Shown: positions 16,886 to 22,288 of the stretch, piece by piece | Layout of the letters: each line of letters opens with the position of its first letter | Numbering within the stretch: position 1 is the stretch's first letter | Source of the DNA: an uncultured delta proteobacterium | GTDB lineage: Bacteria; Desulfobacterota; Syntrophia; Syntrophales; UBA2185 | NCBI GenBank assembly: GCA_963695875.1 | Contig: CAVOID010000014.1 | Location: 72,193-136,192, forward strand | Length of the DNA: 64,000 nucleotides | Direction: 5' to 3' | Notes under the pieces: generated by a model | Databases searched by the model: none | Told to the model about the DNA's origin: nothing | The model's input: only the letters and a program-made list of their open reading frames with translations | Position numbers and translations under genes: made by a program

Positions 16886-16983
16886 GTTTTGCTTTACAGT
16901 ATCGTAATATTTCGCTTAAAATTAAACATTAGTTCTGCTTCATAAAGATAGAGAATCCTTATTATACTAGGGAGAAAAACAAC

Positions 16984-18576
16984 GTGCCGGGTGTCAGATA
17001 TGTCATGTCTCGTGCTGTGAGGAATGCCTATCAGGCGGGCAAAGAAGATGAAACATTGCCTCCCCTTGTTTTATTTAATCGCGCCGGTCAACCCGCGGGA
17101 AGATTAAAAAAAGGAGATGCCGTTATATTTTATAACGTCAGAGGAGAAAGGGAAGTAGAGCTAACGAAAAGTCTGATGGACGCTGGATTCGATAAATTCC
17201 CTGTAGAAAAGAACCTTACGCTTCACTTTGCCACCATGATTGAATACTACAAGGAGCTCAATGCCAGTGTTGCCTTCCCTCCGGAAGGCGTAATTGAAGA
17301 TACATTAAGCGAAATCATAGCGCGACACCACCTCAGGCAGGTAAAAATTACGGAAGCCGAAAAGGCGATTCATATTAGCTATTTTCTCAACGGGAAAAAC
17401 AACGAAGTCCCTCCGGGTGAAGAAAGGGTAATCGTTCCCACCCGGAAAGATGTGACCCTTTTTGACGAAGCCCCGGAAATGTCCATCAACGCCATCACGG
17501 AGAAAGCCATAGAAAAAATACGTGACCCCTCATTTCATTTTATCTTCGTAAACTTCCCGAATGTAGATGTCGTCGGACATATAGAAAATGAAGCGGCTGT
17601 CATTCGCGCCGTTGAGGCAGTGGATACATGTACGGGACGTATTGTCGAGGAGGCTCTAAAAGAAGAGCTTGTCGCTATCGTCACTGCCGATCATGGCACA
17701 GTTGAAAAATGGCTGTTTCCGGACGGCGCCATCGACACTGGGCACACAGACTGCCCCGTTCCTTTTATTCTTGTCGATCACAATCAAAAAAATATATCTC
17801 TGCGGGAAGGCGGCGAACTGGCGGATGTTGCCCCCACCGTCTTAGACCTCATTGATATCCCCAAACCGGCATCTATGACAGGGCGCTCATTGATGAAGAA
17901 TCACTCGTTCCGAAGGAAATACGGAGACAGCCCGCGCGTTCTCCTCTTGATCCTCGACGGCTGGGGAGAGAATAGCTCGACGGCAGGGAATCTGATCGCC
18001 CGTGCCCGTACACCCGTCATGGACAGGCTTAAAAAAACATATCCCTATACCCTGCTTGCGGCTTCCGGAGAAGCTGTCGGTCTCGCGCCGGGAACAGTCG
18101 GCAATTCGGAGGCCGGACACCTCCACATAGGTGCAGGGAGAAGGATTTATGCCGACAGCGTAAAAATTGACCGTTCTATTGCAGACGGATCATTCTTTCA
18201 TAATGAAGCGTTCCTCCACGTAATCCGCGCCGCGAAAGATGCGGGCACCTCACTTCATCTCCTGGGGATCGTGTCGTTCTTCAGTTCTCATGGCTCTATC
18301 AATCATCTTTTTGCCTTGATGGATCTTGCAAAGCAGGAAGGGATCAAGGATGTTTTTATTCATGCCATGCTCGGCAGGCGGGGAGAGACGCCTGAGAGCG
18401 GGGCAAATTATATTGAGAAAGTGGAAAGAAAGGCTGAGGAGATCAATCTGGGAAAGGTTGTCTCAGTGATCGGCAGGTACTGGTCAATGGATCGGGAAGA
18501 AAACTGGGACAGGATTGAAAAAACATACCGCATGCTCGTCTACGGGGAGGGAACCCCTGTGACGGAAAGGAGTTGA
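16984..18576 (+). CDS. gpmI: 2,3-bisphosphoglycerate-independent phosphoglycerate mutase-like protein, circularly permuted
   Basis: All iPGM motifs occur once, in permuted order: GDAVIFYNVR, NVDVVGH, TADHG, LADVAPT come first; LILDGWG, GNSEAGH, GRYWSMDRE come last. Confidence 0.85.
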   Translation: MPGVRYVMSRAVRNAYQAGKEDETLPPLVLFNRAGQPAGRLKKGDAVIFYNVRGEREVELTKSLMDAGFDKFPVEKNLTLHFATMIEYYKELNASVAFPPEGVIEDTLSEIIARHHLRQVKITEAEKAIHISYFLNGKNNEVPPGEERVIVPTRKDVTLFDEAPEMSINAITEKAIEKIRDPSFHFIFVNFPNVDVVGHIENEAAVIRAVEAVDTCTGRIVEEALKEELVAIVTADHGTVEKWLFPDGAIDTGHTDCPVPFILVDHNQKNISLREGGELADVAPTVLDLIDIPKPASMTGRSLMKNHSFRRKYGDSPRVLLLILDGWGENSSTAGNLIARARTPVMDRLKKTYPYTLLAASGEAVGLAPGTVGNSEAGHLHIGAGRRIYADSVKIDRSIADGSFFHNEAFLHVIRAAKDAGTSLHLLGIVSFFSSHGSINHLFALMDLAKQEGIKDVFIHAMLGRRGETPESGANYIEKVERKAEEINLGKVVSVIGRYWSMDREENWDRIEKTYRMLVYGEGTPVTERS

Positions 18577-18579
18577 GCC

Positions 18580-19111
18580 ATGGAAGTAAAGATCAACAAT
18601 TCCACACTGGCCCTCGTTGAGGGAGATATAACAATAGAAGAAACGGACGCGATCGTAAATGCCGCCAATTCGAGACTCGCGGGAGGCGGAGGGGTGGACG
18701 GCGCCATACATCGGGCCGGCGGACCATCCATTATGGCAGGAGTGTCGCAAAATCGGAGGATGTCCTACAGGACAGGCGGTTATCACCACCGGGGGAAATC
18801 TCAAGGCAAAATATGTCATCCACACCGTGGGGCCCGTCTACCAGGGCGGTACAAAGGGCGAAGCAGCACTCCTGAAAAGCGCCCATCTGGAGAGTCTCAA
18901 ACTCGCCTCGGCAAAAAAGCTGAAAAGCATTGCCTTTCCGGCAATCAGCACCGGCGTCTATGGTTATCCTGTAAATGAAGCAGCGCAGATTGCCCTGAAA
19001 ACAGTGATCGATTATCTCAAGGAACACAGCGATATTGAGCTGGTGCGCTTCGTTCTCTTCGGCCGCAAAACATACGACATCTTTGCCGAAGAACTGAAAA
19101 AACTTATCTAG
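18580..19111 (+). CDS. Macro domain O-acetyl-ADP-ribose deacetylase (YmdB-like), frameshifted near 18740
   Basis: [41 protein letters not shown]. Confidence 0.92.
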
Positions 19112-19728: not shown

Positions 19729-20434
19729 ATAAATAGAGGCGGCATAACTTCCAGCTCTTCACGCCCGCTTTTTATACCTTCCACCAGGACGAATTCTGCG
19801 CGTGAATCACCATGTGAATGCACTGTTCGCATTCTTTTCGGTTCGATGCCGGACATTCTCATGGAAGATAAAAGTTCGACCATCCTGGTCGCAGGGTATA
19901 TGATGTTAGCACGTCCTGATTTTTTTAAAACATATGCCGCTGCATTCAGAAAATCTTGCAGTGTTGCCTTGATCTCGTGACGCGCTATAGATTTCTGATC
20001 ATTCGGATTAATTCTGCCTGATTTCAGTTTTCTATAAGGAGGGTTAAAGACTGCTACGTTAAAGGATTTTGAATCAAAGAGGGCCTCGATGCTTCTGATG
20101 TCTCCCAGGCGGATAGCAAGCTTCTCTTCGAGATTGTTTAGCTGAACGCTTCGCTTTGCCATGTCAACCAGTTCTTCCTGAATATCCACACCGACGACCT
20201 TGCCACATTCTTTTCTCTGTGCCATAATGATGGCAATCACCCCGCTGCCAGTTCCCAGGTCAATAATGTGGTCTCCTTTTTTCAGATGAACAAAATGTGC
20301 TAAAAGAAGGGCGTCAATGGAAAACCGGTACCCCTTCTCTTTCTGAAAAATCCTGATCCGGCCTCCAAGAGAGTCTCATCAACGGTTTCCCCTTCCCTTC
20401 TTAGCGATGAGACGTCAGGACCAATTTTTTTCAT
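19539..20434 (-). CDS. tRNA1(Val) A37 N6-methyltransferase (TrmN6/YfiC-like), frameshifted near the 5' end
   Basis: GYRFSIDALLLA, IDLGTGSG, NPPY, ARHE, EPKRMR. Confidence 0.85.
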
Positions 20435-21676
20435 GATGTTAAGAGATGCACAAATATGCCGCTGCGGAGTTTTGGTTCAAACCAGGTAGATTTGGGGGGC
20501 ATGACTTTACCGGCCTTTGAAACAGTCATGAGTTGTTCCATAGTCGTTGGATAAAGGGAAAAAGCGACGGCAAACTCGCTTGAATCAACCAGTCTTTCTA
20601 GTTCTTGCACTCCCCTTATACCACCTATATATTCAATCCTTCCGTCCGTCCTCGGATTTTGAATCCCCAGGACAGGCTTCAACAGATTATCCTGCAGTAT
20701 AGAAACATCGAGAACGTTGACAGGATCATCTTTGTCATAACTGCCATCTTTTGGCTCTATCTTGTACCACCTGCCTCGTAAATACATTCCGATTTCATGG
20801 TACCGACCGGGCAACTTCTCCACAAAATTATTCGAAAACAAAAAATTGCTCACCGACCCTACGAAGAAATTCAACTTCATTCAAGCCATTCAAATCCTTA
20901 CAGCACGGTTATAGCCCATGATCTTGAGTTGATTGTGGGGAAACAAAACAGCCATTGCATAGTTGTATGCTTCATCTCCGCTGCTTGCAGGATTCTGTTC
21001 CTTTTTCAATTTTCTAACCGCTGCGGCGGCAGCAGCCCGGTGATGACCATCGGCAATATAAAGAGTATCAACCTTTTCAAATGAGTTCGTTACTGCTGCA
21101 ATATCTTTTTCATTTCTAATAACCCAGACTGTATGAGAAATACCATCATCGGCAATAAAATCGTATTCAGGATCACCTTCAACCATTTTTTTGACCAGGC
21201 GATCAATGAAATCCTGAGCCCGGTATGTTAAGAAGACGGGTCCTGTATTGGCATTGACTGTTAATACATGCTTAATGCGATCAAGCTTCCTTATCCGCTT
21301 TTGTCAGTTCGTGTTTTTTAATCCGACCTGATTCATATTCAGCGAGGCTTATCCTCGCGACGATACCATACTGCTCATGGAGACCAATTTTTTGTCGATA
21401 TATGTAAAAACATGGCGTTTTATCCTGAAATAAAACCTGTTCTCGAATAAGTTTATCAAGATTTTATTTGGCAATCTCATATACGCGGTCGCCGTCTGTG
21501 TTCAAATGAGACGGCAAATCAATTTCCGATTTCTCAACATGTAGAAAGTTCAAGGGATTGTCTCGCACGATCTCCCTTGCCTCTTCTACACTCACCACAT
21601 CATAAGGGTAAGAAGCAACTGCTTTAACAAATTGTTTCTGCGGCCTGAGCGCCTTGAAGGGAAGAACAACAGACAT
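20431..21676 (-). CDS. DUF1015 family protein (several indels)
   Basis: PFKALRP, YPYDVV, YIADGHHR, MPPKSTWFEPKLRSG. Confidence 0.88.
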
Positions 21677-21808
21677 GATAGAATCTCCTCTTGCGAAATT
21701 TTTAACATACTGACATAGTGAAATCAATTTCAAAAGTGCCGGTGATAAAAAACCTCCATCTTTCTTCCGCCCCGCATGCAACACTAAACTGATTAAGAAA
21801 GGATTATT

Positions 21809-22288
21809 ATGGGTCTGACGAGGGCTTTTATTCACGGGCTCGAAAGTTCGAGCCAGGGAACAAAGGGAGTATTTTTCACGGAAAGGTACCCAGATATGAT
21901 TATCGAAGATTTTGTCGGTACTTTCAACCAGAGAATGAACAAATTGAATAAATTGCTCTCCGATAAAGCTAACCTGATACTGGTCGGCTCCAGTTATGGA
22001 GGATTAATGGCCACTGTCTATGCATGCAATTATGCAGAGAAAATCAGAGAAACTCATTCTTCTGGCGCCTGCCCTTAATATTGATGAATTTAAACCGTAT
22101 CTCAATAAGAAACTCCATCTTCCTGTTATGATCTATCATGGGAGGAATGATGACGTGGTTCCACCGCTATCCGTCCGGAACATTGCCAGATCGGTTTTTA
22201 CAAACCTTCAATACATCTGGTGGATGATGATCATTCCCTCCACAGGACATTCAGTCACATGGACTGGGATACCCTGCTCGAAGCATAA
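21809..22288 (+). CDS. Small alpha/beta hydrolase (frameshifted)
   Basis: FIHGLES, GSSYGG, LILLAPA, IYHGRNDDVVP. Confidence 0.8.

Follow-up and report, generated by a model that had tools for sequence, protein, structure and literature searches.

An open reading frame (ORF) in a 64,000-nucleotide stretch of contig CAVOID010000014.1, assembled from an uncultured delta proteobacterium of the order Syntrophales (the whole stretch is called the window here), encodes a genuine, selected and circularly permuted member of the GpmI/cofactor-independent phosphoglycerate mutase (iPGM) family. The coding sequence occupies positions 16984–18576 on the + strand, begins with GTG, ends with TGA and runs without interruption for 530 codons. 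That the protein is permuted is certain. Its reaction is a separate matter, on which we cautiously favor a working serine-phosphoenzyme mutase that would, judging from its conserved residues, still interconvert 3-phosphoglycerate (3PG) and 2-phosphoglycerate (2PG).

In a phmmer search against all PDB chains, the top match was to 1EJJ, the Geobacillus stearothermophilus iPGM (whole-sequence E 9.7e-121), and it consisted of two blocks in swapped order: residues 319–524 of the query correspond to residues 6–211 of 1EJJ, and residues 11–304 correspond to residues 219–509, both with i-Evalues of at most 3e-58. The NCBIfam profile TIGR01307 scored 495 bits, summed over 2 stretches and above the cut-off of 330.65, with query residues 10–304 matching positions 215–504 of the 504-position profile; the colinear order of phosphatase N-terminal part, transferase insert and phosphatase C-terminal part was not found with this profile, the two halves being swapped. 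Positions 1–130 of the Pfam profile iPGM_N (PF06415) matched residues 395–524 (189 bits), and positions 62–250 of Metalloenzyme (PF01676) matched residues 98–292 (201.9 bits). A TIGR01307 search of the window's own genome detected a single locus, in the order 215–504 followed by 2–219, with no remnant of another copy alongside. On the evidence of the alignments, two-block swapped matches such as these cannot be explained by chance. The score for the equivalog NF003897 was far under its cut-off (404 versus 862), and the ApgM profile TIGR00306 gave 41.8 bits against a cut-off of 320.

An earlier note on this DNA, made from the letters alone, had described an iPGM ORF with its own ribosome-binding site, single-copy motifs in permuted order and new termini within the transferase domain, and on each of these points our results agree with it. 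A Shine-Dalgarno-like GGGAG can be read directly at 16970–16974 (+), 9 nt 5′ of the GTG, and the ORF starts 7–8 residues ahead of the conserved MSxAVR, as it does in the homologues. The motifs named in the note each occur once: AVRNAY (residues 11–16), GDAVIFYNVR (44–53), NVDVVGH (193–199), TADHG (234–238), LADVAPT (279–285), MTGRSL (298–303), LILDGWG (322–328), GNSEAGH (373–379) and GRYWSMDR (497–504). Either half is present once in both the PDB and the profile alignments, which bears out the statement that the gene is not a duplication. The predicted two-block alignment to GpmI was obtained, and a colinear one, which the note had named as evidence against permutation, was not. The iPGM_N profile is split between residues 395–524 and the N-terminal ~95 residues, which places the new termini within the transferase domain.

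All parts of the permuted chain could be assigned on the + strand by reference to 1EJJ. Residues 1–101 (16984–17286) form the second portion of the transferase (iPGM_N) domain, carry the new N-terminus and correspond to 1EJJ residues ~212–310. They are followed by the C-terminal part of the phosphatase (metalloenzyme) domain (residues 102–303; 17287–17892; canonical ~311–511), which holds K127, D195, H199, D236, H237 and H254. The linker, MKNHSFRRKYGDSP (residues 304–317; 17893–17934), is the unaligned gap between the two 1EJJ blocks and connects the former C- and N-termini, at the position proposed in the note. Beyond it lie the N-terminal part of the phosphatase domain (residues 318–389; 17935–18150; canonical ~5–76), with D325 (equivalent to D12) and the nucleophile S375 (equivalent to S62), and the first part of the transferase domain (residues 390–530; 18151–18573; canonical ~77–217), which ends in the new C-terminus and includes the remodelled motifs VSFFSSHGS (430–438) and HAMLGRRGE (460–468). 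We take the transferase domain of 1EJJ to span residues ~77–310, and the limit at 310 agrees with the start of the Pfam Metalloenzyme match at residue 98.

The linker varies in length from 8 to 20 residues among 43 homologues and contains no conserved residue. Two genomes of one genus carry ~165 extra bases (~55 amino acids), in frame, between the halves (G010:C6:64392-66098 and G095:C36:13549-15255), and contigs of related strains contain an additional base after 17909 that is compensated by the loss of one at 17927, such that about six codons are re-read. Variable length, in-frame insertion and compensated indels fit a connector that would be under little constraint.

An AlphaFold2 model built with the 43 homologues had a mean predicted local distance difference test score (pLDDT) of 88.6 and a predicted template modeling score (pTM) of 0.84, which makes it a confident model. 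The pLDDT of the linker was 72–76, and the lowest values, 64–69, occurred in blocks 431–440, 461–470 and 501–510, which are the loops with changed motifs. When the model was compared with the PDB using Foldseek, the 17 best listed rows were all iPGMs, with E down to 1.6e-19. These rows align ~230–320 columns, or about half of the chain each, with a TMq of 0.39–0.48 in the ten best rows and down to 0.36 for trypanosomatid entries, as is expected when a sequential aligner meets a permutant. The AlphaFold model and the Foldseek matches together indicate a two-domain fold like that of solved iPGMs. Since the chain order is swapped, the phosphatase domain would form one continuous stretch (residues ~102–389) and the transferase domain would be built from, and closed by, the two chain ends. 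The accessible part of PMC5382265 describes iPGM architecture as bi-domain with two hinges; we infer that both inter-domain hinges are kept in the permuted protein, and infer likewise the details of its fold.

The permuted gene is widely shared among related bacteria. A search of 5.8 billion proteins, from which the 120 best matches were listed, yielded at least 120 full-length permuted homologues at 64–85% identity, the earlier note having proposed such a search; 118 of the 119 listed matches other than the query cover 98–100% of it in a single local alignment, and the remaining one covers 92%. Those listed include proteins of Syntrophus aciditrophicus SB (on a 3.18-Mb contig), S. gentianae and Smithella, and the complete genome of S. 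buswellii DM-2 also encodes the permuted form. A scan of one genome per species detected 274 stretches encoding a relative, the best 80 of which are all labelled Syntrophales, Syntrophaceae, Smithella, Smithellaceae, or the wider delta-/Proteobacteria and Syntrophobacterales. Ratios of nonsynonymous to synonymous substitution (dN/dS; Nei-Gojobori) against the two nearest orthologues were 0.145 (dS 0.59) and 0.117 (dS 1.10), and the whole ORF is under purifying selection.

Short-read contigs from two other studies bridge the linker (X2 record 13, 17683–18010; X1 record 2, 17832–17972), and other contigs of related strains cross the 3′ end into the next gene with no joints reported. Together with the full-length homologues and the complete genome of S. 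buswellii DM-2, these contigs exclude a misassembly at the linker, which the earlier note had considered; they come from strains 90–99% alike, and they bridge the linker without being a base-by-base check of the window's assembly. No public run contained half or more of the window's sampled words (best share 0.28), so the check on reads rests on relatives. No RNA data set was among the listed runs that share these words, which has no bearing on whether the gene is expressed.

Among 121 sampled genomes of the order, 90 had a match. A full-length colinear copy of the permuted gene was present in 65 (60–100% identity; rows counted by reading), contig-end fragments or a copy with the linker insertion in 8 more, and a canonical-order iPGM in 24 (31–38% identity), 7 of which had both forms. 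At the threshold used for a sample of the phylum (a colinear match at E ≤ 1e-90), 22 of 301 genomes were positive, including 16 outside the order, in families f61, f68 and f102 (53–63% identity). When 1.84 billion cluster representatives were searched exhaustively with HMMER, 11,615 matched at E ≤ 0.001, and the best 150 of these comprised 15 permuted sequences (13 full length, 35–53% identity), 132 canonical ones and 3 of half length.

In a FastTree phylogeny (LG; 154 sequences, 517 columns), the window's group fell within a clade of 19 (support 0.98) whose other members are P0122, P0126, P0132, P0153, P0173, P0196, P0210 and P0237, and the SSHG and RGERE signatures are common to this clade. 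A search with P0132 found at least 120 proteins, the listed ones all colinear with it at 95–100% coverage and 60–84% identity; three among those listed carry an organism name (Anaerolinea sp., Chloroflexi bacterium and Anaerolineaceae bacterium). The nearest clusters in a protein atlas are iPGMs of Chloroflexota and Bacillota. The permuted family is thus wider than Syntrophales and has a large sister clade that is Chloroflexota/Anaerolineae where named. The earlier note missed this reach beyond the lineage, as well as the remodelling of the transferase pocket described below.

Five other permuted representatives (P0124, P0130, P0141, P0264 and P0225) have the canonical residue at D151, G152, R153, D154 and N447 in 5/5 cases. 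P0141 is represented by 2 short contigs, and its 119 other listed relatives all lack the colinear order (coverage 55–59%). P0124, P0130, P0141 and P0264 may be independent permutations or assembly artefacts, and we did not use them as evidence. In P0225 (5027 amino acids), a permuted iPGM module lies at residues 3851–4376 of a predicted giant protein that may be a gene-call fusion. No fused tandem-duplicate intermediate was present among 12 long or odd representatives (551–5027 amino acids), each of which has one A half and one B half.

To compare active sites, the halves of 130 canonical and 24 permuted representatives were aligned separately, with the core permuted clade comprising 19 members and residues numbered as in 1EJJ. 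We take the metal ligands to be D12, D403, H407, D444, H445 and H462 and the nucleophile to be Ser62, their positions having been matched by alignment. The corresponding residues of the window's protein, S375, D325, D195, H199, D236, H237 and H254, are all present and are invariant in the 43 homologues. All 19 core members retain the equivalents of D12, S62, H66, H123, R185, R191, R261, R264 and K336, and likewise those of D403, H407, D444, H445 and H462. R153 is retained in 16 of the 19 and is R in 121 of the 130 canonical sequences. The canonical pocket presumably consists of H123, R153, D154, R185, R191, R261, R264 and K336; seven of these eight residues are retained in the window's protein, and the position of D154 is occupied by G467. 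From this conservation, the two-metal, phospho-Ser chemistry has very likely been retained, and retention of the Arg/Lys pocket together with the catalytic residues means that an anionic phospho-acid substrate stays plausible.

The chain begins midway through the transferase domain, passes hinge 2 and continues into the C-terminal phosphatase part; a freely evolving linker of 8–20 residues then leads to the N-terminal phosphatase part, hinge 1 and the first transferase part. In the mechanism that the conserved residues suggest, the two-metal site would activate Ser375, and Ser375 would accept the phosphate of the substrate while the Arg/Lys pocket of the transferase domain held the acid moiety for re-phosphorylation. 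The most likely reaction would be 3-phosphoglycerate ↔ 2-phosphoglycerate, serving gluconeogenesis in a syntrophic anaerobe. The permuted order itself may have arisen when the gene was duplicated in tandem, the two copies were fused in frame and their outer halves were then lost.

By its distribution, ApgM could pass for the housekeeping phosphoglycerate mutase (PGM) of the order: its profile TIGR00306 is above the cut-off in 117 of the 121 genomes, and in 98/98 of the high-quality ones. In the window's own genome, the high-scoring ApgM-like gene also passes TIGR02535 (HomK; 540.8 versus a cut-off of 446.3) and overlaps the stop of a homoserine dehydrogenase gene (G000:C8:241379-245566, ORFs 236-1498 and 1498-2730), and no thrB above cut-off was found in this genome, which is 82.6% complete. 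The accessible text of bioRxiv 10.1101/2024.10.14.618325 reports that an E. coli thrB mutant is rescued by HomK (TIGR02535/BT2402), the gene for which is typically hom-linked. Because it passes TIGR02535, overlaps hom and occurs where thrB was not found, and because of the HomK precedent, this gene is probably the non-classical homoserine phosphotransferase and not a PGM, which TIGR00306 alone would mistakenly suggest; the "ApgM" of nearly every genome in the order is probably HomK, a homoserine phosphotransferase, rather than a PGM. The argument that ApgM is near-universal and the permuted enzyme hence dispensable was rejected on these grounds, the ApgM-like gene being HomK-like and hom-linked.

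The window's own genome has no GpmA above cut-off. It contains a second ApgM-like gene, of the NF003160 class (396.7 bits over partial length), which is split in two ORFs on the − strand (G000:C10:186879-190733, ORFs 1462-2358 and 2324-2635). Across the order we tabulated the permuted enzyme (73 genomes), canonical iPGM (24) and GpmA (30), and counted the ApgM-like matches in each genome; as kindred genomes cannot be treated as independent, the resulting co-occurrence counts are hints only. Ten of the 73 genomes with the permuted enzyme have no canonical iPGM, no GpmA and at most one ApgM-like match, and five of the ten are 92–100% complete (G019 at 100%). In these ten genomes the permuted enzyme is the sole candidate besides one ApgM-like match, which speaks for its being the PGM. 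Twenty-four genomes have none of the three enzymes, and 19 of them have at least two ApgM-like matches.

Downstream of the permuted gene, separated from it by 3 nt and on the same strand, lies a macro-domain gene (18580–19111, +) in which Pfam Macro is matched in two frames. A macro-domain gene directly downstream on the same strand was found in 58 of 75 related loci, with gaps of mostly −4 to +9 nt, and is likely an operon partner. Upstream synteny in the window's clade comprises a small ORF, pcm, an M23/LysM peptidase gene, carD and ispD, all housekeeping. No macro-domain gene accompanied the permuted gene in the Chloroflexota-type sister clade (0/80 loci). Sister-clade loci L096–L175, on metagenome contigs, show a conserved cluster in which divergent LacI and UxaE genes lie upstream, followed by a single HAD-hydrolase gene or a pair of them, then by the permuted iPGM gene and an ApgM gene of the NF003160 class.

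The window's macro gene is split near 18739/18740 (GG), with positions 1–26 of Pfam Macro in the frame of 18580 and positions 27–118 in ORF 18659–19111. In contigs of related strains one base is missing at 18739 (X2, 11.4 of 18.4 depth; X3, 2 contigs), with which the frame would stay open, and the split reflects either an indel in the assembly or a break peculiar to this strain. A DUF1015 gene on the − strand (20431–21835) is also in pieces: ORF 21464–21835 corresponds to profile positions 1–65 and ORF 20890–21186 to positions 168–264, while ORF 20431–20880 has no Pfam match. The breaks in the macro, DUF1015 and ApgM-like genes point to many single-base indels in the assembly.

Such indels, and the fact that no public run holds half or more of the window's words, are what could be put forward for an assembly or gene-calling artefact, such as a collapsed tandem duplicate or a chimeric contig. 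The same architecture, however, occurs in 65 of the 121 genomes of the order, with cultured isolates and genomes that are complete or in a single contig among its carriers; the linker and the 3′ end are each crossed by independent contigs with no joints reported; selection acts across the entire ORF; and a diversity of 53–85% identity among homologues excludes a common assembly error. We consider an artefact effectively refuted. The natural permutant proposed by the earlier note therefore stands, whereas its function is less certain than the PGM name suggests, given that the transferase pocket is remodelled and the family extends beyond the lineage. Several observations weigh against 3PG/2PG mutase activity. 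D151, which is D in 129 of 130 canonical sequences, has become G in 12 and N in 1 of the core permuted members and remains D in 6; G152 (G in 129/130) is R in 14/19; D154 (D in 126/130) has become G in 14 and S in 4 and remains D in 1; and N447 (N in 123/130) is T in 11/19. In the window's protein, the canonical DGRD motif has become GRRG and the canonical GGVHSH loop has become FFSSHGS, which is invariant within the clade (43 sequences). VSFFSSHGS, HAMLGRRGE and VRGERE are in fact invariant or nearly so in the 43 sequences of the window's clade, at sites where the canonical consensus is SDGGVHSH, H.f.DGRD and NfR.DRar, respectively. Of the 73 genomes with the permuted enzyme, 63 have a further PGM candidate in the form of a canonical iPGM, a GpmA or one more ApgM-like match, versus 10 of 24 for canonical iPGM, and several permuted members are named merely "alkaline phosphatase family protein" by NCBI. 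In the sister clade, 45 of the 59 loci with 1 kb or more of flank have HAD-hydrolase genes ahead of the permuted gene, and in 19 of the 41 with enough flank an ApgM gene of the NF003160 class comes directly after it; the presence of two PGM-type genes in one operon suggests another role for one or both.

A neofunctionalised enzyme, in which the chemistry is kept and another phosphorylated acid or sugar is bound, or which acts as a phosphotransferase or phosphatase while PGM is another protein (NF003160-class ApgM, GpmA or canonical iPGM), is the less probable of the two main readings. The clade-wide replacement of D151, G152, D154, N447 and the GGVHSH loop, the candidates that stand alongside in those 63 genomes, and the sister-clade operon with two HAD genes and ApgM all speak for it, as do the tight conserved operon with the macro-domain gene (of an ADP-ribose-derivative hydrolase family; 58/75 loci) and the precedent, from the wider superfamily, of the ApgM-like HomK, which, in the accessible text of bioRxiv 10.1101/2024.10.14.618325, performs the same chemistry on homoserine. 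It must be reconciled with a pocket in which all 19 members retain H123, the Lys and four Arg (R185, R191, R261 and R264) and 16/19 retain R153, which fits a phosphoglycerate-like anion, and with the ten genomes that have no other obvious PGM; the macro link (0/80 in the sister clade) may represent lineage synteny only, and the data name no alternative substrate. Tentatively, and with somewhat more doubt, one could regard the whole SSHG/RGERE clade, spanning Syntrophales, other Desulfobacterota and Anaerolineae-type Chloroflexota, as an old cross-phylum family that left glycolysis and uses its phospho-Ser machinery on another substrate together with operon partners, namely a macro-domain hydrolase in Syntrophales and HAD phosphatases plus ApgM in Chloroflexota. 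The low model confidence of the changed-motif loops (pLDDT 64–69) might suggest a catalytically dead or regulatory pseudo-enzyme with a binding role, but this is quite improbable in view of a nucleophile and metal ligands that are all kept in 19/19 core members and invariant in 43 homologues, and of a dN/dS of ~0.12–0.15.

A textbook example of a two-domain enzyme in central metabolism, iPGM is also a candidate drug target in parasites, and closure of its domains is central to catalysis. A natural permutant indicates that the iPGM fold tolerates re-wiring and offers a ready test case for the effect of chain connectivity on hinge motion. It also misleads annotation: profiles match the protein in two pieces, and pathway reconstructions of syntrophs and Anaerolineae may miss or mis-assign PGM, a problem made worse by the near-universal "ApgM" that is probably HomK. 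If the remodelled pocket does reflect a new substrate, a widespread and unrecognised reaction of anaerobic communities would be involved. We found no description of a permuted iPGM in the literature covered by our searches, to which subscription journals do not belong. In the accessible part of a survey of PGMs in bacteria (PMC2964296), S. aciditrophicus appears solely in connection with three iPGMs of archaeal type, and words starting with "permut" are absent.

The permuted protein shares both domains, the Ser nucleophile and the metal sites with canonical GpmI/GpmM (TIGR01307; PF06415 plus PF01676; PDB 1EJJ, 1O98, 2IFY and 4MY4), from which it differs in being cut between canonical residues ~211 and 219, in having its old termini fused by a linker, and in the replacement of D151, G152, D154, N447 and the GGVHSH loop. 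Eukaryotic glutathione synthetase is also a natural permutant, in which, according to the accessible part of PMC2876114, the rearrangement hid or confused homology; its fold and chemistry are unrelated to those of iPGM, and it serves as a precedent only. ApgM (TIGR00306) and HomK (TIGR02535) have in common with the permuted protein an alkaline-phosphatase-like metalloenzyme core and phospho-Ser chemistry, yet they carry a different inserted domain and are not permuted; HomK, as far as the accessible text of bioRxiv 10.1101/2024.10.14.618325 goes, shows that this chemistry can be redirected to another substrate. The Chloroflexota/Anaerolineae-type clade represented by P0132 has the same permuted order and the same SSHG and RGERE signatures and belongs to one clade with the window's protein (support 0.98), from which it differs in sequence (~40% identity), in keeping D151 and G152 (motif DGRS), and in being encoded beside HAD and ApgM genes with no macro gene.

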